64,000 bases of DNA from NCBI RefSeq assembly GCF_003019035.1, contig NZ_CP027447.1; one strand, written 5' to 3'. The notes under the pieces are model-generated. The model saw only the letters and a program-made list of their open reading frames with translations, did not search any database and was not told the origin of the DNA. Positions 25,804 through 56,161 of this stretch are shown one piece after another. Source of the DNA: Escherichia coli (GTDB lineage: Bacteria; Pseudomonadota; Gammaproteobacteria; Enterobacterales; Enterobacteriaceae). The first letter of the stretch is position 1. Each line of letters opens with the position of its first letter. Position numbers and translations under genes: made by a program.

Positions 25804-25815
25804 TGAGATTTTTTT

Positions 25816-26265
25816 ATGATGAAATATTTGATGGTTTTATTGTCTCTATTTTCTGCTTCGGTATTGGGGATGGGGCGAGTGAATGAATTGTGTGGAATAG
25901 ATAGTGTGAAAACGATAGAAATAATTAATCTTCCAGCATATGTTACCACCTTAACCCCGCTTAGCAAGGAAGGTCTCAAGAGAATATACAAACATAAAGT
26001 GGTGGTGAATGGAGTTAGCGATTTTTATGCTGGTGAGATAATTGATTTATTGCAAATGAAGTATTTCAGGAAGGAGGAGAATAACGATATAAGATGGGGG
26101 GTTGACATTGTTTCGAATAAAAATAATAAATGTGAAATTTATTTTGATGGTTTTGGTGAATGTGGAAGTGTGAATGGCATTAACGTATGTTTTGAAAAAA
26201 ATGAAATGATAGATTGGATTAAAAAAGAAATCCCTTTTCTGTCGCAAGAAATAGGTGGTCTTTAA
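25816..26265 (+). CDS. Putative cognate immunity protein with signal peptide, 149 aa
   Basis: Track ORF 13 nt after the rhs stop; AT-rich; N-terminus MMKYLMVLLSLFSASVLG. Confidence 0.55.
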   Translation: MMKYLMVLLSLFSASVLGMGRVNELCGIDSVKTIEIINLPAYVTTLTPLSKEGLKRIYKHKVVVNGVSDFYAGEIIDLLQMKYFRKEENNDIRWGVDIVSNKNNKCEIYFDGFGECGSVNGINVCFEKNEMIDWIKKEIPFLSQEIGGL

Positions 26266-26322
26266 ATGGTAGGGCAATATTCAAAGACAGTATAGGTAAC
26301 TATTTGTATGGACATGTAAGGT

Positions 26323-27638
26323 CAGGGAAAGATCACGTAACGCTGCTCAGGGAAAGATCACGTAACGCTGCTTTTTTGTACTAAACAATCCGCATTTTAT
26401 GTTTAAAAATTGAGATATTCCTCATTACCTAAAGCTGTTTTTTATTGCTTATACATGATCAAATACTCCTTACATAATTAAGGAGAACAAAATGGAACTT
26501 AAAAAATTGATGGAACATATTTCTATTATCCCCGATTACAGACAAGCCTGGAAAGTGGAACATAAATTATCGGATATTCTACTGTTGACTATTTGTGCCG
26601 TTATTTCGGGTGCAGAAGGCTGGGAAGATATAGAGGATTTTGGGGAAACACATCTCGATTTTTTGAAGCAATATGGTGATTTTGATAATGGTATTCCTGT
26701 TCACGATACCATTGCCAGAGTTGTATCCTGTATCAGTCCTGCAAAATTTCACGAGTGCTTTATTAACTGGATGCGTGACTGCCATTCTTCAGATGATAAA
26801 GACGTCATCGCAATTGATGGAAAAACACTCCGGCATTCTTATGACAAGAGTCGCCGCAGGGGAGCGATTCATGTCATTAGTGCGTTCTCAACAATGCACA
26901 GTCTGGTCATCGGACAGATCAGGACGGATGAGAAATCCAATGAGATCACAGCTATCCCTGAACTTCTTAACATGCTGGATATTAAAGGAAAAATTATCAC
27001 AACTGATGCAATGGGTTGCCAGAAAGATATTGCAGAGAAGATACAAAAACAGGGCGGTGATTATTTATTCGCTGTAAAAGGAAACCAGGGGCGGCTAAAT
27101 AAAGCCTTCGAGGAAAAATTTCCGCTGAAAGAATTAAATAATCCAGAGCATGACAGTTACGCAATGAGTGAAAAGAGTCACGGCAGAGAAGAAATCCGTC
27201 TTCACATTTTTTGCGATGTCCCTGATGAACTTATTGATTTCACGTTTGAATGGAAAGGTCTGAAGAAATTATGCGTGGCAGTCTCCTTTCGGTCAATAAT
27301 AGCAGAACAAAAGAAAGAGCCAGAAATGACGGTCAGATATTATATCAGTTCTGCTGATTTAACCGCAGAGAAGTTCGCCACAGCAATCCGAAACCACTGG
27401 CACGTGGAGAATAAGCTGCACTGGCGTCTGGACGTGGTAATGAATGAAGACGACTGCAAAATAAGAAGAGGAAATGCAGCAGAATTATTTTCAGGGATAC
27501 GGCACATCGCTATTAATATTTTGACGAATGATAAGGTATTCAAGGCAGGGTTAAGACGTAAGATGCGAAAAGCAGCCATGGACAGAAACTATCTGGCGTC
27601 AGTCCTTGCGGGGAGCGGGCTTTCGTAATCTTTCCCTG
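26323..27638 (+). mobile_element. H-repeat (ISAs1-family) insertion sequence, copy 3, with a 25-bp tandem duplication at its left end
   Basis: cagggaaagatcacgtaacgctgct occurs twice in tandem (26323..26372); IR-R …atctttccctg ends at 27638. Confidence 0.7.
26492..27628 (+). CDS. H-repeat-associated (ISAs1-family) transposase, 378 aa
   Basis: Track ORF; near-identical to copies 1 and 2. Confidence 0.85.
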
Positions 27639-27744
27639 TTTGTTTATATAAATGCCAAGATATTCTTTCTCAAAATATTGACTTCAGATTAACCGTGTTC
27701 CACGCAAACAATTTTCAAACATTCATCAATAGATAAGGAATTCC

Positions 27745-28212
27745 ATGTTTATACGACCAGTCAAACCTTCAGATGTTGAACCATTACTGGATATGCTGCT
27801 TGCCAGTGGACAATTTGATCAAGATGGCCTTCATCATGTACAAAAAACACTAACACATTATTTCTCAGGTCAATCTGCCGATTTATGGTTTAGTGCAGAA
27901 CACTTAGGACTGGCAGGGATTGCCTATTGCGCTCCTGAAGTGATGACAAATGATGTCTGGAATTTATTAATGCTCTGGATCAGTCCTTCCCATCAGCGCC
28001 AGGGAGTGGGACATCTGCTGATTAACGAAATAGAAAAAGAGCTCACAATTAAACAGGCAAGACTACTTTTAGTAGAGACCTCCAGCCATATCGATTTTAG
28101 TGCCGCCCGCGCATTTTATACAAAACAGGGCTTTATCAATGAAGCTATAATACGCAATTACTATGATGTTGGTGAGGATAAATTAATCTTCACTAAGAAT
28201 ATACAATCGTGA
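27745..28212 (+). CDS. GNAT-family N-acetyltransferase, 155 aa
   Basis: Track ORF; acetyl-CoA-binding motif (QRQGVGHLL). Confidence 0.7.
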   Translation: MFIRPVKPSDVEPLLDMLLASGQFDQDGLHHVQKTLTHYFSGQSADLWFSAEHLGLAGIAYCAPEVMTNDVWNLLMLWISPSHQRQGVGHLLINEIEKELTIKQARLLLVETSSHIDFSAARAFYTKQGFINEAIIRNYYDVGEDKLIFTKNIQS

Positions 28213-28277
28213 AATAAAATGTGCTTTTAACTCATATGGAAACATTGCTTAAAAAACCGGTCGCTGCATATGATTCT

Positions 28278-28847
28278 TTAGCCCGCGGTGACTCGCTTCC
28301 CGCTGGTAACAAACGTGCCAGCGCCTAAATGATGCAACGTATTGAGCTTATCATCATCAAACTGCCAGCGGCCTTCGACAAATACCCGTGCGTCTGCCGC
28401 TGCTGATACCACTTCGCCAAACAGCGTGTCGTATTTCTCTTGCGCGGAAGTCGCTGGTAGCAATCGGCACTCCATCCACGCCAGACATTTCTCTTCAACA
28501 AGTGGCAAACCAAGCACCGGACCTTCCACCACCGGAATGCCATAGCAATTAAATTTATCCTCTTCACGCCCAGATACACTTCCCACTGCCCACGTCCAGT
28601 TAGTCGCTGCAACGCCTGGGATAACGATGCCAAATTTACCGTTACGCTCAATCAACTCCCTGGTCCATGTCGACTTATCTACCACAATCGCCACGCGTGG
28701 CGGTTCAAACTCTACGGGCATAGACCAGGCTGCTGCCATCACATTACGTCGCTGTGATTTTTCATCAAAAGTTGTTATCAAAACTGTGGGGCCGTGGTTT
28801 AACAGACGGCTGGCATGGTGTAATTCGACGGGAATGAATTGGCTCAC
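28278..28847 (-). CDS. yddH: Flavin reductase-like domain protein, 189 aa
   Basis: Track ORF; synteny with nhoA. Confidence 0.8.
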   Translation of the reverse strand: MSQFIPVELHHASRLLNHGPTVLITTFDEKSQRRNVMAAAWSMPVEFEPPRVAIVVDKSTWTRELIERNGKFGIVIPGVAATNWTWAVGSVSGREEDKFNCYGIPVVEGPVLGLPLVEEKCLAWMECRLLPATSAQEKYDTLFGEVVSAAADARVFVEGRWQFDDDKLNTLHHLGAGTFVTSGKRVTAG

Positions 28848-29021
28848 GATATCGCCTCGCTATGAAGGGTGTTTTAAAAGCGTAGCTCGTAACGCAATAA
28901 GTAACGAAATTAACGGGATTGGCGATTTGCGAACGTGATGCATGTCCGCGATCGCACAAAATAGCCGGTGCGGCGTCTATTCCAGGTTATAAGTTGAGAA
29001 AACCACTAAGGGAAACGCCTG

Positions 29022-29867
29022 ATGACGCCCATTCTGAATCATTATTTTGCCCGTATTAACTGGTCGGGAGCTGCTGCGGTCAATATTGATACGCTGCGTG
29101 CATTGCACCTGAAACACAATTGCACTATTCCGTTTGAAAACCTCGACGTTTTGCTGCCGAGGGAAATACAGCTTGATGATCAATCGCTGGAAGAGAAACT
29201 GGTGATAGCCCGTCGTGGCGGTTACTGTTTTGAGCAGAATGGCGTGTTTGAGCGGGTGTTATGCGAGCTGGGGTTTAACGTTCGCAGCTTGTTAGGGCGC
29301 GTAGTGTTATCAAATCCGCCAGCATTACCGCCGCGCACCCATCGTTTGCTGTTGGTGGAACTGGAAGGGGAAAAATGGATTGCTGATGTCGGCTTCGGTG
29401 GGCAGACGCTAACCGCGCCGATTCGTTTAGTTCCCGATCTCGTGCAGTTCACGCCACACGGAGAGTATCGGTTGTTACAGGAGGGTGATGATTGGGTGTT
29501 GCAGTTTAATCATCATCAGCACTGGCAGTCGATGTACCGTTTTGATCTCTGCGAGCAGCAACAAAGCGATTATGTGATGGGCAATTTCTGGTCGGCGCAC
29601 TGGCCGCAGTCGCATTTTCGCCATCATTTGCTGATGTGTCGCCATTTGCCGGACGGTGGCAAGCTAACGCTGACCAATTTTCATTTTACCCATTATGAAA
29701 ATGGGCACGCAGTTGAGCAGCGAAATCTACCAGATGTGGCGTCGTTATATGCCGTGATGCAGGAACAGTTTGGTCTGGGCATGGATGATGTGAAACATGG
29801 CTTTACTGTGGATGAGTTAGCGCTGGTGATGGCGGCGTTTGATACGCACCCGGAGGCGGGAAAATAA
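29022..29867 (+). CDS. nhoA: Arylamine N-acetyltransferase, 281 aa
   Basis: Track ORF; NAT-family sequence; matches K-12 NhoA length. Confidence 0.85.
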   Translation: MTPILNHYFARINWSGAAAVNIDTLRALHLKHNCTIPFENLDVLLPREIQLDDQSLEEKLVIARRGGYCFEQNGVFERVLCELGFNVRSLLGRVVLSNPPALPPRTHRLLLVELEGEKWIADVGFGGQTLTAPIRLVPDLVQFTPHGEYRLLQEGDDWVLQFNHHQHWQSMYRFDLCEQQQSDYVMGNFWSAHWPQSHFRHHLLMCRHLPDGGKLTLTNFHFTHYENGHAVEQRNLPDVASLYAVMQEQFGLGMDDVKHGFTVDELALVMAAFDTHPEAGK

Positions 29868-29880
29868 TTTATGTCAGGTT

Positions 29881-29985
<105 letters not shown>

Positions 29986-30014
29986 GCCAGACACAGCGCC
30001 GTCAGGCGCTGTTG

Positions 30015-31240
<1,226 letters not shown>

Positions 31241-31241
31241 T

Positions 31242-32135
31242 TCAGAGTTCAATTGCCCATTCGGCATGAAACAAAATCACCGCCGTGCCAGAAATGGTGA
31301 CTTTCTCCGGTTGGTTATCGCGAATTGTCACCGTCACTTCAATTACGCCGTCACGCCCTAATGCGCGCCCCTGATGGCCTTTAACATGCAACACGTTGCC
31401 ATCGTGGGGCAATACGTTGTGATGTACCAACCATGCACCCATCGGGCCATTGGCATTGCCAGTCACCGGATCTTCCACAATACCAATCGCAGGCGAGAAC
31501 ATGCGACCATCGGTTTCGTTTTTGCCTGGGCGGATCTGGAACGGGAAGAAACCATTGCAGCCAATCTGTTTGCTGATTGTGGTCAGCGCAGCAAGGTCAG
31601 GCGAAAGGGCGTCGATATCCACTTCCGGCTTCAGTGGAATCATCACTTTTGAGTGTCCTGTGGTAGCCACCTGGATTGGCAAGCCTTGCAAAATATCGTC
31701 TTCAGTGAGATGAAGCGCGTTGATAATCGCTGCACGTGTTTCACCTTTCAGCGGTGGCTCAAAGCCTGGAGTACCTTGTTCCAGCGAAATACGATAATCA
31801 TCATTTTGCTTTTCGATAGTCACACGATGTTTTCCTGCCAGCGACGTTTGCCAGACGGTGCAATTTCCTAAACCTAACACCTTTGCACGTACATAGTGCG
31901 CAGCTACTGTCGCGTGACCACAAATCGGAACTTCAACCGTTGGCGTAAAGTAGCGGATGCGCACATCGCTGTCGTCGCTGTGCAGCAGAAAAGCAGTTTC
32001 CGAATGACCTAACTCGCGGGCGATAAGCTGCATTTGCGCTTCGCTAAGATTATCGGCGGGGAAAACAACACCGGCAGAATTGCCGCGAAACGGTTGAGAG
32101 GTAAAAGCATCGACGTGGTAAACCTGCGGTTTCAT
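31242..32135 (-). CDS. yddE: PhzF-family isomerase-like protein, 297 aa
   Basis: Track ORF; synteny. Confidence 0.8.
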   Translation of the reverse strand: MKPQVYHVDAFTSQPFRGNSAGVVFPADNLSEAQMQLIARELGHSETAFLLHSDDSDVRIRYFTPTVEVPICGHATVAAHYVRAKVLGLGNCTVWQTSLAGKHRVTIEKQNDDYRISLEQGTPGFEPPLKGETRAAIINALHLTEDDILQGLPIQVATTGHSKVMIPLKPEVDIDALSPDLAALTTISKQIGCNGFFPFQIRPGKNETDGRMFSPAIGIVEDPVTGNANGPMGAWLVHHNVLPHDGNVLHVKGHQGRALGRDGVIEVTVTIRDNQPEKVTISGTAVILFHAEWAIEL

Positions 32136-32214
32136 TAATGTTCTCCTGTGGCTGGAGAACTATCATAGCCTGCAAGTGGCCGGAGAGCGAAGAGCTATCC
32201 GGCCCGCGAGAGAA

Positions 32215-32895
32215 TTAACGCCGCGAACGCACAATCTGATACCGACGAGTAAAGTACTCAAACGGCGCGCTCCAGACATGCACCAGTCGGGTGAACGGGA
32301 AGAGCAGAAAGATGGTCATTCCAAGCACCAGATGAACGCGGAATATAAAGGCGACACCATCAAGATGCGTAGATGCACCGCCCTGGAAAGTGACAATGCT
32401 TTGCGCCCAGCCCACCAGCTTCATCATTTCACTGCCGTCCGGATGTTGTGCTGAAAAAGGAATGGTGGTTAACCCAAGAATGCACTGAATTAACAAAATG
32501 GCGAGGATCAGGATATCCGCACCAGAAGACGTCGCCCTGATACGCGGATTTGTTAAACGACGCACCAGTAGCCCCGCACCGCCAATCAGCGTCAATACCC
32601 CGCATATTCCGCCGAGGATCATCGCCATCTGCTGTTTTACCGCCACCGGCAGAAACCACGCGTACATCCAGTGCGGTGTTAACATGCCGAACAGGTGCCC
32701 GAAGAAAATCCCCAAAATGCCGATATGGAACAGATTCGACCATATCACCATCCCACGTTTATCGAGCATCTGGCTCGAGGAGGCGCGCCAGGTGTACTGC
32801 CCGTAGTCATAGCGCAGCCAGCTGCCAAGGAAAAACACCGTCGCACAAATGTACGGGTAGATATCGTAAAAAAAGACGTTCAGATACTGAATCAT
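32215..32895 (-). CDS. narV: Nitrate reductase Z gamma subunit (cytochrome b), 226 aa
   Basis: Track ORF; NarI-family membrane protein; operon order narZYWV. Confidence 0.85.
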
Positions 32896-44509: not shown

Positions 44510-44766
44510 TTAACAGAATCCTTTTAATTATCGTTAAACGTATTTTCTAAACGAATTTTAAACGACGTCATTTATAAATGACATACTGTTTTTAAAATGG
44601 AATGGTGATTAAACACAATGAGAAAAATAGATGAAATAATATTATTTATCGATATGTGATCGAAGTCGAAATGAAATATAAGGTGAACTACTGGTATTTG
44701 AAATTTATTTTTTATATTGTCGGAATTTATCTGATTAACTGCCGGGCCGTAGACCCGACAATTATT

Positions 44767-45648
44767 TTAGCCACGACGTGTCGCCAGCCAGCAGAGCAGG
44801 GAACCGCCGCAGACCATTAGCGCGCCTTGCCAGAACGAGAACGACAGCGGGGCGCTGAGCAGCACGGCTGCAAGCGCTGAGGAAAGGACGGGCGTAAAAT
44901 ACGAACCTACCGCCATAATGGTGACGTTGCCATGTAATATACCGACGTTCCATGCAGCATAAGCAAATCCTAAGGTAAATGCCGCAGAGATGAGTTTAAT
45001 CATGACTGGCGTGCTAAATACCATTTCTGGTTGTGGCGTGAGAAAATAGTAAACCCACAGACTTGCTCCCGTTAGCAGGACAAAAACGGTAATTCCGTTA
45101 AATCCGCGTGCGTATTTATTCGTTACTGTGCAATAGGCTGCCCAGATAAACGCACCAATAAACGCCAGGAAATAACTCAATGGGCTGGTGGTGATATTAT
45201 TGATGATTTCATCATAATGTAACCCATTGTCACCACCTAACACCCAGCAGACGCCAACCAGGGCTAATAATAATCCTGGTACAATCAGCCAGTTGGTTTT
45301 CTGACCATTAAACAGAATGGCAAAGAGAATTGTCAGGCTGGGCCACAGATAGTTCACCATACCCACTTCAATCGCCTGATGACGGGTCGCCGCATATCCT
45401 AAGGAAAGCGCCAGACAGATTTCATAGCTGACGAATAACAGACACCCGGCGAGTAAATAGCCTTTCGGGATCTGCCGAATACGCGGAAATCCAACCGTGA
45501 AGATTAACAGCAGCCCGCTTAATGAATAGATAGCAGCTGCGCCGCCGACCGGGCCGAGCCCCTCACTGACACCGCGAATCAATCCTACCATCGTGCTCCA
45601 CAGGACGATCGCTATTAGCCCTATGAGCGTTGCTTTTTGTCGTGTCAT
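44767..45648 (-). CDS. yddG: Aromatic amino acid exporter (DMT family), 293 aa
   Basis: Track ORF; 10-helix hydrophobic profile; synteny upstream of fdnG. Confidence 0.8.
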   Translation of the reverse strand: MTRQKATLIGLIAIVLWSTMVGLIRGVSEGLGPVGGAAAIYSLSGLLLIFTVGFPRIRQIPKGYLLAGCLLFVSYEICLALSLGYAATRHQAIEVGMVNYLWPSLTILFAILFNGQKTNWLIVPGLLLALVGVCWVLGGDNGLHYDEIINNITTSPLSYFLAFIGAFIWAAYCTVTNKYARGFNGITVFVLLTGASLWVYYFLTPQPEMVFSTPVMIKLISAAFTLGFAYAAWNVGILHGNVTIMAVGSYFTPVLSSALAAVLLSAPLSFSFWQGALMVCGGSLLCWLATRRG

Positions 45649-45879
45649 GCTCGCTGTTTTGTCTCTCTTGCCGTTAAAAATTAAGCTGAATTTTATAGCA
45701 TTTTTTTAACTGGCCTGTCAGGCAGTGGTGCGTTTTTCTACCGCTATTGAGGTAGGTCAATTTGCGCAGGCGGATTATTTTGTGGCAAACACGTGTTCTT
45801 TTTGATTTCGCGCAAAAAGATTCAGAATTTTACTGTTAGTTTCCTCGCGCAGTAATACCCCTGAAAAAAGAGGAAAGCA

Positions 45880-48800
45880 ATGGACGTCAGTCGCAGACAA
45901 TTTTTTAAAATCTGCGCGGGCGGTATGGCTGGAACAACAGTAGCGGCATTGGGCTTTGCCCCAAAGCAAGCACTGGCTCAGGCGCGAAACTACAAATTAT
46001 TACGCGCTAAAGAGATCCGTAACACCTGCACATACTGTTCCGTAGGTTGCGGGCTATTGATGTATAGCCTGGGTGATGGCGCGAAAAACGCCAGAGAAGC
46101 GATTTATCACATTGAAGGTGACCCGGATCATCCGGTAAGCCGTGGTGCGCTGTGCCCGAAAGGGGCCGGTTTGCTGGATTACGTCAACAGCGAAAACCGT
46201 CTGCGCTACCCGGAATATCGTGCGCCAGGTTCTGATAAATGGCAGCGTATTAGCTGGGATGAAGCATTCTCCCGTATTGCGAAGCTGATGAAAGCTGACC
46301 GTGACGCTAACTTTATTGAAAAGAACGAGCAGGGCGTAACGGTAAACCGTTGGCTTTCTACCGGTATGCTGTGTGCCTCCGGTGCCAGCAACGAAACCGG
46401 GATGCTGACTCAAAAATTTGCCCGCTCCCTCGGGATGCTGGCGGTAGACAACCAGGCGCGCGTCTGACACGGACCAACGGTAGCAAGTCTTGCTCCAACA
46501 TTTGGTCGCGGTGCGATGACCAACCACTGGGTGGATATCAAAAACGCTAACGTCGTGATGGTGATGGGCGGTAACGCTGCTGAAGCACATCCCGTCGGTT
46601 TCCGCTGGGCGATGGAAGCGAAAAACAACAACGATGCAACCTTGATCGTTGTCGATCCCCGTTTTACGCGTACCGCTTCTGTGGCGGATATTTACGCACC
46701 TATTCGTTCCGGTACGGACATTACGTTCCTGTCTGGCGTTTTGCGCTACCTGATCGAAAACAACAAAATCAACGCCGAATACGTTAAGCATTACACCAAC
46801 GCCAGCCTGCTGGTGCGTGATGATTTTGCTTTCGAAGATGGCCTGTTCAGCGGTTATGACGCTGAAAAACGCCAGTACGATAAATCGTCCTGGAACTATC
46901 AGTTCGATGAAAACGGCTATGCGAAACGCGATGAAACACTGACTCATCCGCGCTGTGTGTGGAACCTGCTGAAAGCGCACGTTTCCCGCTACACGCCGGA
47001 CGTAGTAGAAAACATCTGCGGTACGCCAAAAGCCGACTTCCTGAAAGTGTGTGAAGTGCTGGCCTCCACCAGCGCACCGGATCGCACAACCACCTTCCTG
47101 TACGCGCTGGGCTGGACGCAGCACACCGTGGGTGCGCAGAACATCCGTACTATGGCGATGATCCAGCTGCTGCTCGGTAACATGGGTATGGCCGGTGGCG
47201 GCGTGAACGCATTGCGTGGTCACTCCAACATTCAGGGCCTGACCGACTTAGGTCTGCTCTCAACCAGCCTGCCGGGTTATCTGACGCTGCCGTCAGAAAA
47301 ACAGGTTGATTTGCAGTCGTATCTGGAAGCGAATACGCCGAAAGCGACGCTGGCTGATCAGGTGAACTACTGGAGCAACTATCCGAAGTTCTTCGTTAGC
47401 CTGATGAAATCTTTCTACGGCGATGCCGCGCAAAAAGAGAACAACTGGGGCTACGACTGGCTGCCGAAGTGGGACCAGACCTACGACGTCATCAAGTATT
47501 TCAACATGATGGACGAAGGCAAAGTCACCGGTTATTTCTGCCAGGGCTTTAACCCGGTTGCGTCCTTCCCGGACAAAAACAAAGTGGTGAGCTGCCTGAG
47601 CAAGCTGAAGTACATGGTGGTAATCGATCCGCTGGTGACTGAAACTTCTACCTTCTGGCAGAACCACGGCGAGTCGAACGATGTCGATCCGGCGTCTATT
47701 CAGACTGAAGTATTCCGTCTGCCTTCGACCTGCTTTGCTGAAGAAGATGGTTCTATCGCTAACTCCGGTCGCTGGTTGCAGTGGCACTGGAAAGGTCAGG
47801 ACGCGCCGGGCGAAGCGCGTAACGACGGCGAAATTCTGGCGGGTATCTACCATCATCTGCGCGAGTTGTACCAGGCCGAAGGTGGTAAAGGCGTAGAACC
47901 GCTGATGAAGATGAGCTGGAACTACAAGCAGCCGCACGAACCGCAATCTGACGAAGTAGCTAAAGAGAACAACGGCTACGCGCTGGAAGATCTCTATGAT
48001 GCCAATGGCGTGCTGATTGCGAAGAAAGGTCAGTTGCTGAGTAGCTTTGCGCATCTGCGTGATGACGGTACAACCGCATCGTCTTGCTGGATCTACACCG
48101 GTAGCTGGACAGAGCAGGGCAACCAGATGGCTAACCGCGATAACTCCGACCCATCTGGTCTGGGGAATACGCTGGGATGGGCCTGGGCGTGGCCGCTCAA
48201 CCGTCGCGTACTCTACAACCGTGCTTCGGCGGATATCAACGGTAAACCGTGGGATCCGAAACGAATGCTGATCCAGTGGAACGGCAGCAAGTGGACGGGT
48301 AACGATATTCCGGACTTCGGCAATGCCGCACCGGGTACGCCAACCGGGCCGTTTATCATGCAGCCGGAAGGGATGGGACGCCTGTTTGCCATCAACAAAA
48401 TGGCGGAAGGTCCGTTCCCGGAACACTACGAGCCAATCGAAACGCCGCTGGGCACTAACCCGCTGCATCCGAACGTGGTGTCTAACCCGGTCGTTCGTCT
48501 GTATGAACAAGACGCGCTGCGGATGGGTAAAAAAGAGCAGTTCCCGTATGTGGGTACGACCTATCGTCTGACCGAGCACTTCCACACCTGGACCAAGCAC
48601 GCGTTGCTCAACGCAATTGCTCAGCCGGAACAGTTTGTGGAAATCAGCGAAACGCTGGCGGCGGCGAAAGGCATTAATAATGGCGATCGTGTCACTGTCT
48701 CAAGCAAGCGTGGCTTTATCCGCGCGGTGGCGGTGGTAACGCGCCGTCTGAAACCGCTGAATGTAAACGGTCAGCAGGTTGAAACGGTGGGTATTCCGAT

Positions 48801-48927
48801 CCACTGGGGCTTTGAGGGAGTCGCGCGTAAAGGTTATATCGCTAACACTCTGACGCCGAATGTCGGTGATGCAAACTCGCAAACGCCGGAATATAAAGCG
48901 TTCTTAGTCAACATCGAGAAGGCGTAA
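45880..48927 (+). CDS. fdnG: Formate dehydrogenase-N alpha subunit (selenocysteine-containing molybdoenzyme), 1015 aa with UGA read as Sec at codon 196
   Basis: Track ORFs 45880..46467 and 46516..48927 share one frame, separated by TGA at 46465..46467; twin-arginine signal MDVSRRQFFKICAGGMAG. Confidence 0.9.
46465..46515 (+). other. Selenocysteine UGA codon with downstream SECIS-type hairpin region
   Basis: In-frame TGA inside fdnG; the sequence immediately 3' (cacggaccaacggtagcaagtcttgctccaaca) can form a stem-loop. Confidence 0.55.
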
Positions 48928-48939
48928 GGGGGCGAACAG

Positions 48940-49824
48940 ATGGCTATGGAAACGCAGGACATTATCAAAAGGTCCGCAACTAACTCCATCACGCCGCCTT
49001 CGCAGGTGCGTGATTACAAAGCAGAAGTCGCAAAACTTATCGACGTTTCCACCTGTATCGGCTGTAAAGCCTGTCAGGTGGCGTGTTCGGAGTGGAACGA
49101 CATCCGTGATGAAGTGGGGCACTGCGTCGGGGTTTACGATAACCCCGCCGATCTGAGCGCCAAGTCCTGGACTGTGATGCGCTTTAGCGAAACCGAACAG
49201 AACGGCAAGCTGGAGTGGCTGATCCGTAAAGACGGCTGTATGCACTGTGAAGATCCGGGCTGCCTGAAGGCGTGCCCGTCTGCTGGTGCAATCATTCAGT
49301 ACGCTAACGGGATTGTCGATTTCCAGTCGGAAAACTGCATCGGCTGTGGTTACTGCATTGCCGGGTGTCCGTTTAATATTCCGCGCCTCAACAAAGAGGA
49401 TAACCGGGTATATAAATGCACGCTCTGCGTCGATCGCGTCAGCGTCGGCCAGGAACCGGCTTGTGTGAAAACCTGTCCGACCGGGGCTATCCACTTCGGC
49501 ACCAAGAAGGAGATGCTGGAGCTGGCGGAACAGCGCGTGGCGAAACTGAAAGCGCGTGGTTACGAACATGCTGGCGTCTACAACCCGGAAGGGGTCGGTG
49601 GTACGCACGTCATGTACGTGTTGCATCACGCCGATCAGCCGGAGCTGTATCACGGTCTGCCGAAAGATCCGAAGATCGACACATCGGTGAACTTGTGGAA
49701 AGGCGCGTTGAAACCGCTGGCAGCGGCTGGCTTTATCGCCACTTTTGCCGGGTTGATTTTCCACTACATCGGTATTGGCCCGAATAAGGAAGTGGACGAT
49801 GACGAGGAGGAGCATCATGAGTAA
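48940..49824 (+). CDS. fdnH: Formate dehydrogenase-N beta subunit (4Fe-4S), 294 aa
   Basis: Track ORF; four CxxCxxCxxxCP motifs. Confidence 0.9.
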
Positions 49825-50470
49825 GTCGAAAATGATTGTGCGCACCAAGTTTATTGATCGCGCCTGTCACTGGACCGTGGTGATTTGCTTCTTCCTGGTG
49901 GCGCTGTCCGGGATTTCGTTCTTCTTCCCGACGCTGCAATGGCTGACGCAAACCTTCGGTACGCCGCAGATGGGACGCATTTTGCACCCGTTCTTCGGCA
50001 TTGCGATTTTCGTCGCGCTGATGTTTATGTTTGTGCGTTTTGTGCATCACAACATCCCGGATAAGAAAGATATTCCGTGGCTGTTGAACATTGTCGAAGT
50101 ATTAAAAGGCAATGAGCACAAAGTGGCGGATGTCGGGAAGTACAACGCCGGGCAAAAGATGATGTTCTGGTCGATCATGAGCATGATTTTCGTGCTGCTG
50201 GTGACCGGGGTGATTATCTGGCGTCCGTACTTTGCGCAGTACTTCCCGATGCAGGTTGTTCGCTACAGCCTGCTGATTCACGCGGCTGCGGGTATCATCC
50301 TGATCCACGCCATCCTGATCCATATGTATATGGCATTCTGGGTGAAAGGATCGATTAAAGGGATGATCGAAGGGAAGGTGAGCCGTCGCTGGGCGAAGAA
50401 ACACCATCCACGCTGGTATCGTGAAATCGAGAAGGCAGAAGCGAAAAAAGAGAGTGAAGAAGGGATGTAA
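49817..50470 (+). CDS. fdnI: Formate dehydrogenase-N gamma subunit (cytochrome b556), 217 aa
   Basis: Internal ATG at 49817 overlapping the fdnH stop; track ORF 49775..50470. Confidence 0.85.
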
Positions 50471-50491
50471 TCTCTTTTGAACTTTAAGCTG

Positions 50492-50523
50492 AAAATGGCG
50501 CTTTAAGAAGCGCCATTTTTTTA
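50492..50523. terminator. Bidirectional intrinsic terminator between fdnI and yddM
   Basis: Stem aaaatggcgc / gcgccatttt with 8-nt loop, flanked by an A-run and a T-run. Confidence 0.5.
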
Positions 50524-50805
50524 TTGCGTAACCAGACGGCGCAGTCGCGACACATCCACCGTTTTTTCAGCCTCTGCCAGGCTCCAGGCGTTTTGCAGAT
50601 TCAGCCACATTTGCGGCGAACTGCCGATCACCACGGAAAGTTTAATTGCCATTTCTGGCGTCAAAGCTGCTTTTCCGGTCAGCAATCGGCTTGCCGTTGA
50701 GGGAGCAATTTCCATTGCTCTGGCAAACTCGCGCAGGCTGACATTAAGTTCGTCCAGTGATTCCTGAATAATGTCCCCCGGGCGGGGATGATTGGCCATT
50801 TTCAT
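50521..50805 (-). CDS. yddM: HigA-like helix-turn-helix antitoxin-type regulator, 94 aa
   Basis: Internal ATG of track ORF 50521..50883; HTH (…[27 protein letters not shown]…). Confidence 0.6.
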
Positions 50806-50950
50806 TAGTGTCTTTACTCTCAGTAGCGTTCCTTCACCAGGAACACTATCATTATTGTTCCTTCCTACGCAACAATAATCCATTTAGCCATTTCATGTTG
50901 GAGAGAGTGCGATGCTGCGACCCGAACATGGCAGTCGCAGCAAAGGCCTC

Positions 50951-51961
50951 TTAGTGACGGAAATCAATCACCATGCGGCCACGGATTTTGCCTTCTTCCA
51001 TCTCGGTAAAGATGGTGTTGATGTCCGCTAACGGACGCAGGGCGACTTTCGGCACCACTTTGCCTTCGGCGGCAAACTGGAAGGCTTCAGTTAAATCCTG
51101 GCGCGTGCCGACCAGCGAACCGACCACTTCAATACCATCCAGCACAAGGCGTGGGATATCCAGGCTCATAGACTCCGGCGGCAGACCGACTGCCACAACA
51201 CGCCCGCCTGCACGGACAGCATCAACTGCCGAGTTAAACGCAGCTTTAGCTACCGCTGTCACCACTGCTGCGTGAGCGCCACCAGTTTTCTCCTGCACAA
51301 TTTTGGCGGCGTCTTCGGTGCGTGAGTTAATCGCTAAATCAGCGCCCATTTCGGTTGCCAGTTTTAACTGCTCATCATTGACATCAATGGCGATCACTTT
51401 CGCGTTAAAGACATTCTTCGCGTATTGCAGGGCGAGGTTACCCAGACCGCCAAGACCGTAGATAGCAATCCACTGCCCTGGACGAATTTTTGACAGCTTC
51501 ACCGCTTTGTAGGTGGTGACCCCCGCACAGGTAATGCTGCTGGCCGCCGCCGAGTCCAGGCCATCGGGCACTTTTACCGCGTAATCGGCGACCACGATGC
51601 ATTCTTCAGCCATCCCGCCATCAACGCTGTATCCGGCGTTTTTAACAGAACGGCAGAGGGTTTCGTTACCACTATTACAGTATTCGCAATGACCGCATCC
51701 TTCGTAAAACCACGCCACGCTGGCACGATCGCCTGGTTTTAATGAGGTGACACCTGGGCCAACTTCTGCCACTACACCAATACCTTCGTGTCCCAGAATT
51801 ACGCCGGTTTTGTCACCAAAATCGCCATTCTTAACATGAAGATCGGTATGACATACACCACAACACTCCATTTTCAGCAGGGCTTCGCCATGTTTCAGTG
51901 AGCGCAGTGTTTTATCCGTAACGTCAACATGATGATCCTTCGTAACAACTGCAGCCTTCAT
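50951..51961 (-). CDS. adhP: Zn-dependent alcohol dehydrogenase (propanol-preferring), 336 aa
   Basis: Internal ATG (reverse complement of 51959..51961) with AGGAGG ribosome-binding site; GHEGIG and GLGGLG motifs. Confidence 0.85.
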
Positions 51962-52094
51962 AGTTCCTCCTTTTCGGATGATGTTCTGCATAGCAGGTGA
52001 GGCAAATGAGATTTATTCGCCACTACCCAGTATGGATGAGATCTGAAAAAGGGAGAGGAAAATTGCCCGGTAGCCTTCACTACCGGGCGCAGGC

Positions 52095-53792
52095 TTAGAT
52101 GGAGGTACGGCGGTAGTCGCGGTATTCGGCGTGCCAGAAATTATCATCAATGGCCTGTTGCAGAGCTTCGGCAGACGTTTTCACCGCCACGCCTTGCTGC
52201 TGCGCCATTTTGCCAACCGCAAAGGCAATTGCGCGGGAGACTTTCTGAATATCTTTCAGTTCCGGTAGTACCAGACCTTCGCCGTTCAGGACCAGCGGCG
52301 AATACTGAGCAAGCGTTTCACTTGCCGACATCAGCATCTCATCGGTGATACGTGACGCGCCGGAAGCAATAACGCCCAGCCCGATGCCCGGGAAAATAAA
52401 GGCGTTGTTACACTGGGCGATAGGGTAGATTTTATCTTTCCATACCACTGGGTTAAACGGACTGCCAGTGGCGACCAGCGCGTTACCTTCGGTCCAGGCG
52501 ATAATGTCCTGCGGTGTGGCTTCCACGCGTGACGTCGGGTTAGACAGCGGCATCACGATCGGACGCGGACAGTGTTTATGCATCTCACGGATGATCTCTT
52601 CCGTAAACAGCCCGGTCTGTCCTGAGACGCCAATCAGAATATCTGGTTTTACATTGCGCACCACATCCAGCAGTGACAACACATCGCTGTCGGTATCCCA
52701 GTCACTGAGGTTTTCGCGCTTCTGCACCAGTTTGGTCTGGAAAGGCAGCAGGTTCGGCATCTTGTCGGTCAGCAGGCCAAAGCGATCGACCATAAAGACT
52801 TTCTGCCGCGCCGCTTCCTCGCTTAATCCTTCGCGCTGGGTCTGGGCGATGATCATTTCGGCAATGCCGCATCCCGCTGAACCTGCGCCAAGGAAGACGA
52901 TTTTTTTCTCGCTTAACTGACCGCCTGCCGCGCGGCTGGCTGCGATCAGTGTGCCGACTGTTACCGCCGCAGTGCCCTGAATGTCATCGTTAAAAGAACA
53001 AATTTCATTGCGATAGCGGTTAAGTAACGGCATCGCATTTTTTTGTGCGAAGTCTTCAAACTGCAACAGTACGTCCGGCCAGCGTTGTTTCACAGCCTGG
53101 ATAAATTCATCAACGAATTCATAGTATTCGTCGTCAGTGATACGCGGATTACGCCAGCCCATATACAGCGGATCGTTAAGCAGCTGTTGGTTGTTCGTCC
53201 CGACATCCAGCACCACCGGAAGGGTATACGCCGGGCTGATGCCGCCACATGCGGTATAGAGTGACAGTTTACCGATCGGAATGCCCATCCCGCCGATGCC
53301 CTGGTCACCAAGCCCCAGAATACGTTCGCCGTCAGTCACCACAATCACTTTGATATTATGGTTTGGTACGTTTTGCAGAATATCGTCCATATTGTGGCGG
53401 TTCTGGTAAGAGATAAACACACCGCGTGAACGGCGGTAGATCTCAGAAAAACGCTCACAGGCTGCGCCGACGGTTGGGGTGTAAATGACTGGCATCATCT
53501 CATCAAGATGATTGTTTACCAGACGGTAGAAGAGGGTTTCGTTAGTGTCCTGGATGTTACGCAGGTAGATGTGTTTGTCGATTTCGGTTTTGAATCCCTG
53601 ATACTGGATCCATGCTCGTTCCGCTTGTTCTTCGATGGTTTCGACCACTTCCGGCAGTAACCCCAGCAGGTTGAAGTTACGGCGTTCTTCCATGCTGAAG
53701 GCGCTGCCTTTATTCAACAACGGAAATTCCAGCAATACAGGGCCAGCGTAAGGGATATAAAGCGAACGCTGTTTTTTTGTTTTTGGTTCCAT
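52095..53792 (-). CDS. maeA: NAD-dependent malic enzyme, 565 aa
   Basis: Internal ATG of track ORF 52095..53828; start [18 protein letters not shown] matches my recollection of MaeA/SfcA. Confidence 0.85.
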
Positions 53793-53948
53793 GTCACTCA
53801 CTCTTTTTTGAATATCCATCCCTGGCACGCTTTTATCGTCTTTGCTTTACCGCCAGGGCGTCGGCCCCAAGTATAAAGCAGATAAAAACAAAAACACCAT
53901 TGCGCAGGCAATGGTGTTTAATCGTCATTGAGGACTGATGGTTATGAA

Positions 53949-54086
53949 TTACTTTTCAGCGGGGCGTTTTCTGCCGGTTGGGTTATTTACCACGCTGGAT
54001 TTGTCACCTTCGGTAACTATTTTGCGCTGGTTAGAAATTTTATGGTCCAGTCCAAGAATATGACGTGCCTGACGGTTCGATTTCAT
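53949..54086 (-). CDS. sra: Stationary-phase ribosome-associated protein Sra (S22), 45 aa
   Basis: Hand translation [45 protein letters not shown]; GAGGAG ribosome-binding site; below the ORF-track cutoff. Confidence 0.8.
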
Positions 54087-54187
54087 TTTAACTCCTCAAT
54101 CCTGTTGCTAGTTTTAAGGACAACATCGCCGTAGCGAAGAAACACGTGCTAAACCCCTAAATTAGGTTGCCGATCAAGCATAGCACC

Positions 54188-54403
54188 TTAAAGCGTAGGG
54201 TGCTGGCCACTGACCACATAATTGATCGTTTGCTGGTAGATATCACTGAGGATGTCGTTATCAGAAGCTTCCACCCATTTGGTCAGCTCCATGAGAATGT
54301 CATCTTCAGTGACAACACCGTGCTCTGCCCGAAGGCCTTGCTCAATGGCATTAACCAGAGCGGGTTCTGCTGTTGAATTTTCTGCCTGATAATAAGTAAA
54401 CAT
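54188..54403 (-). CDS. bdm: Biofilm-dependent modulation protein, 71 aa
   Basis: Internal ATG of track ORF 54188..54466; start MFTYYQAENSTAEPALVNAIEQ. Confidence 0.75.
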   Translation of the reverse strand: MFTYYQAENSTAEPALVNAIEQGLRAEHGVVTEDDILMELTKWVEASDNDILSDIYQQTINYVVSGQHPTL

Positions 54404-54747
54404 AGTGATTCTCCGTGTCTGTGTATTTTTGGTGTCTGCTACGGATCGCAGATTTATAAAGCACATTCAGCATGGCAAATATTTGCCGCTTCGTTGTTAA
54501 GATTAGTCCTGGTTGATAGTTTTTATATTTTAACCCCATGATATTGATAGGTATTATTATTGTGGTGAGTTGAATGATATTGATGCAATATCTCTTGAGA
54601 TATATATTCCCGGTAATCTATTGTGGGAATTTAATTTAAGTGCAGAAGTATTATTTTCGCCGGATTTTATTCGGAATATCCTGCTTATCCTCGTGCGGTT
54701 TCTCACGTAGTCTATAATTTCCTTTTTAAGCCCACAGGAGAGCAACA

Positions 54748-55179
54748 ATGACAATCCATAAGAAAGGTCAGGCACACTGGGAAGGCGATATCAAACGCGG
54801 GAAGGGAACAGTATCCACCGAGAGTGGCGTGCTGAACCAACAGCCGTATGGATTTAACACGCGTTTTGAAGGCGAAAAAGGAACCAACCCTGAAGAACTG
54901 ATTGGCGCAGCGCATGCCGCATGTTTCTCAATGGCGCTTTCATTAATGCTGGGGGAAGCGGGATTCACGCCAACATCGATTGATACCACCGCCGATGTGT
55001 CGCTGGATAAAGTGGATGCCGGTTTTGCGATTACTAAAATCGCACTGAAGAGCGAAGTTGCGGTGCCGGGTATTGATGCCTCTACTTTTGACGGCATTAT
55101 CCAGAAAGCAAAAGCAGGATGCCCGGTTTCTCAGGTACTGAAAGCTGAAATTACGCTGGATTACCAGTTGAAATCGTAA
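54748..55179 (+). CDS. osmC: Osmotically inducible peroxiredoxin, 143 aa
   Basis: Track ORF with ribosome-binding site; OsmC/Ohr fold. Confidence 0.85.
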   Translation: MTIHKKGQAHWEGDIKRGKGTVSTESGVLNQQPYGFNTRFEGEKGTNPEELIGAAHAACFSMALSLMLGEAGFTPTSIDTTADVSLDKVDAGFAITKIALKSEVAVPGIDASTFDGIIQKAKAGCPVSQVLKAEITLDYQLKS

Positions 55180-55234
55180 AGCGTTGCCGGATGACGCGTC
55201 AGGCGCGTGATTGCCTGATGCGTTGTTAGCGTCT

Positions 55235-56161
55235 CTACAGCGCCCGCCAGCACCGGATCTCACGTCCGTCCTCCCTTATTGCTAATGATTGCCGGACTTC
55301 ACACCCGTGGGTTGCCAGAGGGCAACGTTCACGGAAAAAACAGCCTTGTGGCAACGTGCGGTTTCCTGGTAGATCCGTTTTACGTAATGCCCATTCTTCC
55401 TCCAGCGGTTTATCAATGGCGGGGAGGGAATCCAGCAATAATCGGGTGTAGGGATGTGCCGGAGCTGTCAGCACCTGTTGCGCGTCTCCTAATTCCACAA
55501 TCTGTCCGAGATACATCACCGCCACCCGATCGCTCATATGACGTATCACCGAGACATTGTGTGAAATCAGCACATAAGTCAGCCCGCGATTTTCCTGTAG
55601 CGTTACCAGTAAATTGAGGATCTGCGCCTGCACGGAGATATCCAGCGCCGAGGTTGGTTCATCAAGCACAATCACGTCAGGCTGCGAAGAGAGTGCTCTG
55701 GCAATGGCGATACGTTGCCGCTGCCCGCCTGAGAACGCATGGGGCAAGCGGTCGAGATACTCCGGACGAATACCCACCTGCACAGCCAGCTCCTCTGCCA
55801 ACGCTCGCCGCTGTTGTTCACTACTACGCTTAGCAATCCAGAGCGGTTCCGTGATGATGCGCCACACCGGTAAGCGCGGATTAAGCGAAGAGAGCGGGTC
55901 CTGAAACACCATCTGCATAATGCGTTGTGATCCTGAACGGATGTACTGCCCGTGGCTCGGTTGCAGCATACCCATTAAAAGCTGTGCGAGGGTGCTTTTG
56001 CCGCAACCTGACTCACCGACGATCCCTAAGGTTTCACCACGACGGATCTGTAAATCAATACCATTGATGGCATGAACATGTTCCGTAGTTTTACCAAGCC
56101 AGTTTTTTCGGGCCGGGAAATTGATATGGACGTCGCGTAACGTTAATAACGTGTCAGACAC
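55235..56161 (-). CDS. ddpF: D,D-dipeptide ABC transporter ATPase, about 308 aa, GTG start
   Basis: Track ORF 55235..56215; GTG (reverse complement of 56159..56161) gives MSDTLLTLRD…; Walker A GESGCGKST. Confidence 0.8.
   Translation of the reverse strand: MSDTLLTLRDVHINFPARKNWLGKTTEHVHAINGIDLQIRRGETLGIVGESGCGKSTLAQLLMGMLQPSHGQYIRSGSQRIMQMVFQDPLSSLNPRLPVWRIITEPLWIAKRSSEQQRRALAEELAVQVGIRPEYLDRLPHAFSGGQRQRIAIARALSSQPDVIVLDEPTSALDISVQAQILNLLVTLQENRGLTYVLISHNVSVIRHMSDRVAVMYLGQIVELGDAQQVLTAPAHPYTRLLLDSLPAIDKPLEEEWALRKTDLPGNRTLPQGCFFRERCPLATHGCEVRQSLAIREDGREIRCWRAL

Follow-up and report, generated by a model that had tools for sequence, protein, structure and literature searches.

Does the in-frame TGA that interrupts fdnG in this stretch of Escherichia coli DNA mark a broken gene, or is it a programmed site of selenocysteine (Sec) insertion? 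The stretch analysed, referred to below as the window, is 64,000 nucleotides long, and in the mechanical list of its open reading frames fdnG appears as two separate pieces, 45880..46467 and 46516..48927. The two pieces nevertheless belong to one and the same frame (46516-45880 = 636, i.e. 212 codons), and the translation of 45880..48927 gives 1016 codons with a single internal stop, at codon 196, and a terminal TAA. An earlier, sequence-only reading of the locus had placed the TGA at 46465..46467 and had the frame continue to 48927, and in both respects it was exact. It had also taken the TGA for the known Sec codon of formate dehydrogenase-N (FDH-N), followed by a SECIS hairpin, and had warned against annotating the gene as a pseudogene. 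Our analysis gives the same answer by several routes: fdnG is, almost certainly, an intact selenoprotein gene in which UGA 196 is a programmed Sec recoding site. The features on which this conclusion is based are collected in Table 1.

Table 1. Features of the fdnG locus, in coordinates of the window; SECIS positions are numbered from the U of the UGA.
Feature	Coordinates	Strand	Basis
fdnG CDS, formate dehydrogenase-N alpha subunit, 1015 residues, Sec at 196	45880..48927	+	TIGR01553 profile, RefSeq identity, 1kqf_A alignment
Putative twin-arginine (Tat) signal peptide region, MDVSRRQFFK...QALA	45880..45978	+	SRRQFFK motif read from translation
UGA selenocysteine codon, codon 196	46465..46467	+	Same codon in K-12 fdnG/fdoG; 1kqf_A non-standard residue 196
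SECIS element, full Rfam SECIS_3 (RF01989) match	46462..46520	+	84.3 bits, model positions 1-59/59
Lower stem, 5' strand, positions 3-13	46467..46477	+	MFE fold
Upper hairpin, positions 15-32, inferred SelB-binding core; 7 bp, bulged U17, 3-nt loop	46479..46496	+	Folds, comparative pairing
Bulged U17	46481..46481	+	No pairing partner in any predicted fold or in the Rfam consensus structure
Apical loop G23 U24 C25	46487..46489	+	Folds; loop 19 nt past UGA
Lower stem, 3' strand, positions 38-48	46502..46512	+	MFE fold, comparative pairing
Block of nearly frozen synonymous sites, Enterobacterales fdnG/fdoG (positions -2 to +63)	46462..46527	+	Third-position entropy
fdnH (beta subunit)	48940..49824	+	TIGR01582, 482 bits; RefSeq annotation
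fdnI (gamma subunit, cytochrome b)	49817..50470	+	NF007558; coordinates from RefSeq annotation

The identity of the gene is not in doubt. With the profile for the FDH-N alpha subunit (TIGR01553, cutoff 814 bits), FdnG scores 1623.9 bits, and the match is one stretch that runs from residue 2 to residue 1014 and covers profile positions 1-1009. Chain A of the PDB entry 1kqf aligns over residues 1-1015, and its residue 196 is a non-standard one; both in the profile scan and in the PDB comparison, Cys was entered in place of Sec at this position of FdnG. From established knowledge of FdnG, we take the region of the SRRQFFK motif to be an export (Tat) signal. The genes for the beta and gamma subunits follow directly, and the gamma subunit gene distinguishes between the two possible types of operon: fdnI reaches 486 bits with the FDH-N gamma model NF007558 (cutoff 339), whereas with the FDH-O gamma model it fails, at 268 bits against a cutoff of 341. 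K-12 has the identical arrangement of genes, yddG-fdnGHI-yddM-adhP (b1473-b1478). The locus is the FDH-N operon, not the FDH-O one, and the name fdnG given to the gene in the sequence-only reading was correct. At the nucleotide level the fdnG sequence is 100% identical to that of strain SCU-301 and to the sole fdnG CDS of NZ_CP051751.1. The identity to SCU-301 is 100% for the fdn region, but the 64 kb as a whole are not collinear with that genome (99.7-99.9% identity, 51 gap openings, and a match that is interrupted near 22941-23913 and again past 60310), and the annotation coordinates of that strain were used only within 23913..60310.

Were the TGA a nonsense mutation, the product would be truncated at residue 195 and the frame beyond it would be decaying. 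Apart from the split in the mechanical list of reading frames, nothing points in this direction. On the contrary, the 820 downstream codons are intact and the match to the FDH-N alpha profile extends from end to end, the gene having only the one internal stop and no frameshift elsewhere. Codon 196 is UGA in the fdnG of the window, in K-12 fdnG and in K-12 fdoG alike. In RefSeq this exact sequence is annotated as an undivided CDS of 3048 nt without a pseudogene flag, and such flags for internal stops do occur on other genes of the region. The same codon is found well beyond these few genes: in 5406 of 5433 E. coli records the 111 nt around the UGA have an identity of 99% or more, the UGA is in frame at no fewer than 107 FdnG-type loci, and of the 120 pattern matches listed from other genomes, 119 have the TGA with an open frame to either side (with the reservation that the TGA itself was part of the search pattern). 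A Streptomyces match (L067) that lies outside any FDH gene was attributed to chance and excluded. Since a recoding signal also lies 3' of the TGA, the pseudogene interpretation is effectively refuted, and we accord it only a negligible probability.

That recoding signal belongs to a described family. The match to Rfam SECIS_3 is well above the gathering score of 63 (E = 1e-19 to 1e-18; 1.4e-18 over the whole window) and is the sole Rfam match in the 64 kb to exceed its gathering score; with SECIS_2 the window attains only 28.8 bits, for a gathering score of 70. When aligned with the elements of K-12 fdnG and fdoG, as had been suggested earlier, the three are identical at the site and all score 84.3 bits. 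The span originally assigned to the recoding site, 46465-46515, has the right start, the first base of the TGA, but not the right end: 46515 merely precedes the next in-frame ATG by one base, while the predicted pairs end at 46512 and the Rfam match at 46520. The upper hairpin starts 11 nt past the UGA, at position 15, and this is also where the minimal stem-loop of the E. coli SECIS begins (PMC8659212). U17 is a known SelB contact, and G23 and U24 are the conserved loop bases of the E. coli element, whose lower stem is dispensable for minimal function (PMC8659212). The loop of the fdnG hairpin likewise fits the constraints of the bacterial SECIS models of PMC13188914 and PMC10778597. The sequence 3' of the fdnG UGA is an fdnG/fdoG-type SECIS with the E. 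coli SelB determinants in place.

Folding energy, in comparison, turned out to be a poor guide. The 45 nt 3' of the TGA, whose folding had been proposed as a check, do form the hairpin, but the energy is unconvincing (z = -1.70 against shuffled controls). For the 51 nt counted from the UGA the energy is -14.6 kcal/mol with z = -0.76, and other lengths gave -2.06 (the 18-nt upper hairpin), -0.67 (66 nt) and -0.14 (88 nt). In the same shuffle test, the experimentally defined SECIS of fdhF has a z-score of +0.10, and for this reason the test has no power for elements of this kind and was dropped as a criterion. Judged by energy alone, the stability of the fdnG element is not convincingly above chance, and the mere ability to form a hairpin is weak evidence because shuffled sequences fold about equally well.

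Comparison between genomes is far more informative. Our comparative set consists of at least 107 FdnG-type loci, with 65 distinct sequences among the matches listed. As the search pattern fixed most of positions -3 to +20, invariance at the positions that it specified is there by construction, and the informative sites are its N positions together with everything 3' of +20. U17, for example, is invariant in the alignment, but it is fixed both by the pattern and by a Val codon. Within the 65 distinct sequences among the matches listed, the upper helix is paired in 99.8% of the cells, as against 27-56% for slid controls. Pair 18/30 occurs there as G-C (49 sequences), A-U (10), C-G (3) and G-U (3), and pair 21/27 as A-U (44), C-G (18) and G-C (3). 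The four sites involved are all synonymous ones at the third position of a codon, and among the matches listed none of the 130 cells is unpaired. The covariation score of the observed alignment was reached by none of 500 shuffles, a result whose significance is overstated because the sequences are phylogenetically related. The lower stem behaves differently: 83-85% of its cells are paired and 15-17% unpaired, with almost no compensatory change among the matches listed. Its register in the E. coli MFE fold differs from that of the Rfam consensus, and clean compensatory changes in the lower stem were found in neither of the two registers. An apparent covariation there, from A9/U42 to C9/C42, is a register shift rather than a compensated pair.

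These data also bear on the idea that the hairpin is nothing but a by-product of the peptide U-HGPTVASLAPTFGRGAM encoded around the UGA, with no role as RNA, and that the codon is read through independently of any SECIS, for example by near-cognate suppression. The peptide is indeed highly conserved and accounts for much of the conservation at first and second codon positions, and the folding energy is, as noted above, unexceptional. Constraint on the protein is nevertheless insufficient, because it explains neither the invariance of G15 and U24 (synonymous sites left free by the pattern, yet identical in 65 of the 65 distinct sequences among the matches listed), nor the Watson-Crick covariation at the synonymous pairs just described, nor the collapse of third-position entropy around the Sec site and only there. 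Moreover, decoding of the UGA was reported to be lost when the fdnG stem-loop was mutated (Berg, Baron and Stewart 1991, cited in PMC13188914). A hairpin without a role as RNA, combined with SECIS-independent readthrough, is thus scarcely credible. Together, the comparative evidence and the covariance model establish a SECIS element far beyond chance, and of the two the comparative data are decisive.

How the element would operate can be outlined from what has been published on the K-12 gene, whose UGA was reported to encode Sec and whose stem-loop was reported to be essential (Berg et al. 1991, J Biol Chem 266:22380, 22386, as cited in PMC13188914). Since the sequence in the window is identical to that of K-12 at the site, we infer by analogy that Sec insertion and SelB binding take place at this UGA as well. 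The fdnG mRNA just 3' of the UGA would fold into the bacterial SECIS hairpin, and the C-terminal domain of the elongation factor SelB would bind its upper part (46479..46496). SelB, GTP and Sec-tRNA(Sec) would thereby be held at the ribosome as the UGA enters the A site, where the complex is expected to outcompete release factor 2 (RF2). The UGA would be read as Sec and not as a stop because the downstream mRNA forms the SECIS hairpin, and Sec196 would then coordinate the active-site molybdenum of formate dehydrogenase-N. The trans-acting genes selA, selB and selC are nearly universal in the species, with selAB in 5425 and selC in 5424 of 5426 E. coli genomes. Within the 64-kb window itself there is no selA, selB or selC, nor any tRNA or further RNA match.

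One property of the region extends beyond the hairpin: in Enterobacterales, synonymous sites hardly vary across a stretch of about 66 nt, a length that exceeds that of the hairpin. Among the matches listed for this order, third-position entropy is 0.13 bit within the block and 1.14 bit outside it (p = 3.6e-11). The block takes in the unpaired internal loop and continues for some 15 nt beyond the predicted stem on its 3' side. Again among the matches listed, the block is present in both paralogues (fdnG and fdoG) and in four families, the Enterobacteriaceae, Yersiniaceae, Morganellaceae and Budviciaceae. In the non-enteric FdnG genes and the enteric fdhF genes among those matches, the constraint is limited to the upper hairpin. 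Gene conversion between fdnG and fdoG was rejected as the main explanation for the 71 nt that they have in common, because the block is conserved across the enterobacterial families while its flanks diverge. GGA, CUU, AGU and ACA are rare codons in E. coli, and codon optimisation is an unlikely cause of the freeze because the conserved codons include all four of these. A literature search on extended conservation, or on gene conversion between fdnG and fdoG, found nothing relevant. There is perhaps a small chance that the enterobacterial fdnG/fdoG recoding element is larger than the described SelB-binding hairpin and that the extra sequence reflects an additional, undescribed requirement. An alternative 3' hairpin, in which GGUC (40-43) would pair with GACC (54-57) after the lower stem has been unwound by the ribosome, is one possibility; a second contact with the ribosome or with a factor is another. 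If the freeze is functional, the definition of the enterobacterial SECIS would be refined, and this would be relevant to the engineering of selenoprotein expression.

In E. coli, Sec insertion competes with RF2 termination, and the frozen block exceeds what SelB binding by itself requires, so that a further role is conceivable. It could therefore be argued that the site acts as an attenuator under the control of selenium or SelB, at which ribosomes mainly terminate to give a 195-residue fragment, the full-length protein being a minor product. However, the crystallised active subunit is the full-length selenoprotein (1kqf), and the 820 downstream codons are under strong purifying selection, only four of the 60 differences from K-12 changing an amino acid. 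Nothing points to a function for an N-terminal fragment. We consider such an attenuator extremely improbable, and a recoding site whose product is the complete FdnG protein remains our interpretation of UGA 196.

The presence of the Sec UGA and its SECIS in this gene, as stated in the sequence-only reading, is confirmed; it is also ordinary and already known. The finding adds nothing new, because UGA recoding of this kind is textbook knowledge and was described for fdnG itself in 1991. Its practical side is annotation, since automated tracks of open reading frames split fdnG at codon 196. Only the synonymous constraint past the minimal hairpin has some value for further research.

Of the known systems most like this one, fdnG of K-12 (b1474) has the same Sec codon, Rfam score, operon and flanking genes as the window. 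Around the TGA the two genes agree at every nucleotide, over at least 9 nt on the 5' side and 60 nt on the 3' side. The 60 nucleotide differences between them are mostly synonymous, those nearest to the TGA (gene positions 534 and 708) falling outside the SECIS, and the two proteins differ at residues 127, 342, 366 and 666. The paralogue fdoG (formate dehydrogenase-O) resembles fdnG in having its Sec at codon 196 and a SECIS_3 match of 84.3 bits, and the longest perfect run shared by the two genes, 71 nt, begins 3 nt before the UGA and maps to 46462..46532. Over their whole length, however, fdoG and fdnG have only 74.7% nucleotide and 76.8% amino-acid identity, and fdoG is at another locus, in the operon fdoGHI-fdhE. 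A further comparison is with fdhF (formate dehydrogenase-H), whose SECIS is the reference bacterial element and matches the sister family SECIS_2. The fdhF element operates by the same SelB-dependent mechanism (PMC8659212), and it shares with that of fdnG the UGAC context, a hairpin that starts at position 15, the bulged U17, and an apical loop that contains G23 and U24. It differs in having a 6-bp upper stem closed by a 4-nt GGUC loop, where fdnG has 7 bp and a 3-nt GUC loop, and in the location of its Sec codon (140 as opposed to 196). Finally, in enteric fdhF synonymous constraint is found only in the hairpin, whereas in fdnG and fdoG it covers about 66 nt.

The ORF list splits fdnG of this E. 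coli strain in two: one ORF (45880..46467, 195 aa) ends at an in-frame TGA, and the next (46516..48927) opens at the first in-frame ATG. Read directly in the sequence, the TGA lies exactly where the sequence-only reading had placed it, correct to the base. The span flagged by that reading, 46465-46515, thus starts properly, but its end is merely the base before the next ATG and has no biological meaning. When 45880..48927 is translated in one frame it gives 1016 codons with a terminal TAA, codon 196 being the sole internal stop, so that the same frame does run on to 48927. Translation, the family model and the structure alignment reveal neither a second internal stop nor the frameshift elsewhere in the gene that had been named as an argument against recoding.

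The gene is fdnG. Its 1015-residue product, with Cys in place of residue 196, reaches 1623.9 bits against the NCBIfam model TIGR01553 for formate dehydrogenase-N (FDH-N) alpha (cutoff 814), in a single stretch covering residues 2-1014. The following ORF is the beta subunit (TIGR01582, 482 bits), and the gamma-subunit ORF passes the FDH-N model NF007558 (486 bits vs a cutoff of 339) but stays below the cutoff of the model for the paralogous FDH-O (268 vs 341). The DNA of 45700..49000 is 100% identical to that of E. coli strain SCU-301 and has a counterpart at 95-100% identity, annotated fdnG/fdnH, in 5425 of the 5426 complete E. coli genomes. Both SCU-301 and K-12 MG1655 have fdnG as one 3048-nt CDS, with yddG upstream and fdnH, fdnI, yddM and adhP downstream. 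Finally, the product and chain A of PDB 1kqf/1kqg, the 'formate dehydrogenase, nitrate-inducible, major subunit', correspond one residue to one from 1 to 1015, and the chain carries a non-standard residue exactly at 196. The TGA is the known Sec codon of FDH-N, as had been proposed. Two studies of 1991, both cited in PMC13188914, established for K-12 fdnG that Sec is specified by the opal codon (Berg, Li, Heider and Stewart) and that the stem-loop in the mRNA is essential (Berg, Baron and Stewart).

Coordinates of the fdnG recoding site and of neighboring features (hairpin positions are counted with the U of UGA as 1)
Feature	Hairpin positions	Window	Strand	Remarks
TGA (codon 196)		46465..46467	+	
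SECIS_3 (RF01989) match		46462..46520	+	full model covered
Lower stem	3-13 with 38-48		+	predicted fold
Upper hairpin	15-32	46479..46496	+	predicted fold; 7 bp, U17 bulged
Bulged U17	17	46481	+	predicted fold
Apical loop G23 U24 C25	23-25	46487..46489	+	predicted fold; 3 nt
Pair 18/30	18 with 30			Val GUN with Ala GCN; G-C 49, A-U 10, C-G 3, G-U 3
Pair 21/27	21 with 27			Ala GCN with Leu CUN; A-U 44, C-G 18, G-C 3
Low-entropy block	-2 to +63	46462..46527		about 66 nt; Enterobacterales
Candidate FNR site		45802..45815	+	TTGAT-N4-CGCAA
GC-rich hairpin		50486..50532	both	between convergent fdnI and yddM
Porin gene		43409..44509	-	intact, 366 aa; adjoins yddG

Several features of the surroundings deserve mention. 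The candidate FNR site, whose center lies about 71 nt before the start codon of fdnG, matches 8 of the 10 bases of the FNR consensus (TTGAT-N4-ATCAA) and would fit the anaerobic, nitrate-induced fdnG promoter. Runs of A and T border the GC-rich hairpin, whose Rfam matches are weak and sub-threshold (STnc320, 28.8 bits vs 50; also TarB and STnc240); rather than an sRNA, it most likely represents an intrinsic terminator acting in both directions. The porin gene is a strain-variable OmpC-family paralogue: K-12 has only a 96-aa fragment (yddL) at this position, whereas the identical SCU-301 copy is annotated 'porin OmpC', although it is probably not the canonical ompC that the PGAP name implies. 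The window does not belong to SCU-301 itself: identity to that sequence (NZ_CP051751.1; loci L127 and L128) is 99.7-99.9%, 51 small gap openings are spread over about 59 kb, the two cease to be collinear at about 22941-23913, and the aligned part stops at 60310. The stretch of SCU-301 that matches approximately 10000-32000 contains IS elements and frameshifted Rhs/VgrG genes. Small indels in such numbers point to errors of long-read assembly in one sequence or the other.

When all 4227 Rfam families were scanned over the whole 64-kb window, the only match above its gathering score was SECIS_3, with 84.3 bits (gathering 63, E about 1e-18); on SECIS_2 the same element reaches only 28.8 bits. The E. 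coli SECIS has a minimal stem-loop that begins 11 nt past the UGA, with a bulged U17 and apical G23/U24, of which U17 and G23 contact SelB (PMC8659212), and the predicted fold has all of these features of spacing, bulge and loop. It likewise conforms to the general bacterial model, in which a loop of 3-9 nt has a G within its first two positions and lies 16-37 nt from the UGA (PMC13188914; PMC10778597). Given the SECIS_3 score and the SelB determinants in the predicted fold, the contention that the sequence 3' of the TGA can form a SECIS hairpin holds, and, the lower stem aside, the element displays every testable membership feature of bacterial SECIS, Rfam SECIS_3 and FdnG. Could the interrupted fdnG nevertheless be a pseudogene? 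This is excluded, since the 820 downstream codons are intact and conserved, orthologues and paralogues share the same UGA, and a recoding signal is present.

Folding energies, expressed as z-scores against dinucleotide shuffles, were -0.76 for the 51 nt from the TGA, -2.06 for the 18-nt upper hairpin and -0.14 for the 88-nt context. The 45 nt 3' of the TGA, the fold specified beforehand, gave z = -1.70. Such energies say little. Because the proven element of fdhF (formate dehydrogenase-H), our positive control, itself scores +0.10, this test cannot discriminate, and related sequences were therefore collected for comparison.

A pattern scan with GTNTGACAYGGNCCNWCNGTNGC (codons V-U-H-G-P-T/S-V-A, third positions free) over 100,044 species genomes yielded at least 120 matches. 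Among the 120 listed, 107 are FdnG-type (...DNQARV-U-HGPTVA[SG]LAP[TS][FY]GRGAM...), 12 are FdhF-type and one, in Streptomyces, was rejected as a chance match; in all 119 real matches listed, open frames flank the TGA on both sides. The 107 FdnG-type loci and the window gave a gap-free alignment of 65 distinct 59-nt sequences, related by descent, in which the pattern had fixed most bases from -3 to +20. A conserved hairpin, whose absence would have told against the sequence-only reading, is clearly there: standard pairs occupy 99.8% of the upper-helix cells, with covariation. It might be argued that this is a by-product of protein conservation, but the behavior of the synonymous sites rules this out. 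Pairs 18/30 and 21/27 join synonymous third codon positions and covary, with zero unpaired cells in the 65 sequences. G15 (Thr ACN, paired with C32) and the SelB-contact loop base U24 (Ser AGY or Gly GGN), both synonymous and free in the pattern, are invariant (65/65), while the third positions outside the upper hairpin (9, 12, 33, 36, 45, 48, 51) each have three or four different bases. None of 500 shuffles of these sequences, which share descent, matched the observed covariation score or the count of cells changed on both sides, and when the 3' partners are slid by 1-3 columns, pairing falls to 27-56%, compared with about 91% without the shift. Support for the lower stem is poor: pairing reaches 83-85% of its cells, and the E. 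coli fold and the Rfam consensus place it in different registers. Outside Proteobacteria, too, FdnG-type Sec codons are followed by an upper hairpin of the same design (loci L017, L030, L024 and L108, from Actinomycetota and Terriglobia MAGs, Geomesophilobacter and a Desulfuromonadales MAG); G15, U17, G23 and U24 are kept there, some with the loop GUU, not GUC.

According to established work, SelB carrying GTP and Sec-tRNA(Sec) would bind the upper hairpin and, competing with RF2, bring the tRNA to the UGA in the A site; Sec196 would become the Mo ligand of the enzyme. The selA-selB genes are present in 5425 of 5426 E. coli genomes and the selC tRNA-Sec in 5424; no tRNA was found in the 64-kb window, these trans-acting genes lying outside it. 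The view that the site is mainly a regulated stop finds no support, the crystallized enzyme being a full-length selenoprotein. Thus the observation is confirmed (an in-frame UGA, an intact gene, a SECIS architecture with SelB determinants at the right distances and an upper hairpin maintained in evolution), and its Sec/SECIS interpretation is supported. The finding is already known for fdnG; its value is annotational, in that the gene should be neither split nor called a pseudogene.

In the Enterobacterales, synonymous constraint extends farther. Third-position entropy collapses over the low-entropy block in 26 distinct fdnG/fdoG sequences (e.g. loci L015, L018, L064, L110, L115), which share 72-95% identity with the window across 540 nt and represent Escherichia, Citrobacter, Enterobacter, Klebsiella, Kluyvera, Superficieibacter, Mangrovibacter, Yersinia, Photorhabdus, Providencia, Moellerella and Budvicia. 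Codons for invariant amino acids average 0.13 bit inside it (19 codons) vs 1.14 bit outside (84; Mann-Whitney p = 3.6e-11). On its 3' side the block outruns the predicted SECIS hairpin by about 15 nt: the four informative codons there (starts 49, 55, 58, 61) all have at most 0.39 bit, a level found in just 7% of outside codons and matched by none of 81 outside four-codon windows, and 24 of the 26 sequences do not differ from one another over positions 38-63. By comparison, among 73 FdnG-type sequences from non-enteric bacteria constraint falls on the upper-hairpin sites only, the flanks resembling ordinary synonymous sites (0.98 vs 1.07 bit, not significant). A frozen block of 66 nt is more than the minimal SelB-binding hairpin explains. 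Gene conversion between fdnG and fdoG fails to explain conservation across families, and codon optimization is unlikely, as the conserved codons include ones that are rare in E. coli. A possible alternative pairing of GGUC (40-43) with GACC (54-57), seen in one fold, has no comparative support. We consider it improbable that the block reflects an undescribed functional requirement; the literature searched contained no paper on this extended conservation, which does not show it to be unreported.

Within E. coli, 5406 of 5433 records keep at least 99% identity over the 111 nt surrounding the site; for the whole 3.3 kb, the majority lie in the 95-99% band. One 294-kb record labelled plasmid (L129, NZ_CP170379.1 121286-133392) carries the chromosomal rhaAD-fdhD-fdoGHI-fdhE region, perhaps through misassembly or because the replicon derives from the chromosome; its fdoG-type gene is called 'fdnG' by PGAP, which shows that RefSeq is unreliable in assigning the names fdnG and fdoG. 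K-12 fdnG differs from that of the window by 60 nucleotides, only four of which change an amino acid, and none of which falls between gene positions 534 and 708, the span holding the TGA (586-588) and the hairpin. K-12 fdoG has 74.7% nucleotide and 76.8% amino-acid identity to the window fdnG, with the identical codon at just 58% of identical amino acids; their longest perfect run, of 71 nt (gene positions 583-653, window 46462..46532), opens 3 nt ahead of the UGA, and each of the 18 informative codons in it is the same in both genes. Both K-12 genes have exactly the SECIS_3 score of the window. Unlike these, fdhF matches the sister family SECIS_2 (87.1 bits), and in enteric and Haemophilus fdhF (13 sequences) the constraint, in contrast to enteric fdnG/fdoG, is limited to the hairpin. 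Folded in the same way, fdhF has the spacing of the window element; its stem is 6 bp long and its loop is GGUC. Judged by its identical sequence, the window element is the K-12 fdnG SECIS, and by its predicted fold a structural sibling of that of fdhF.
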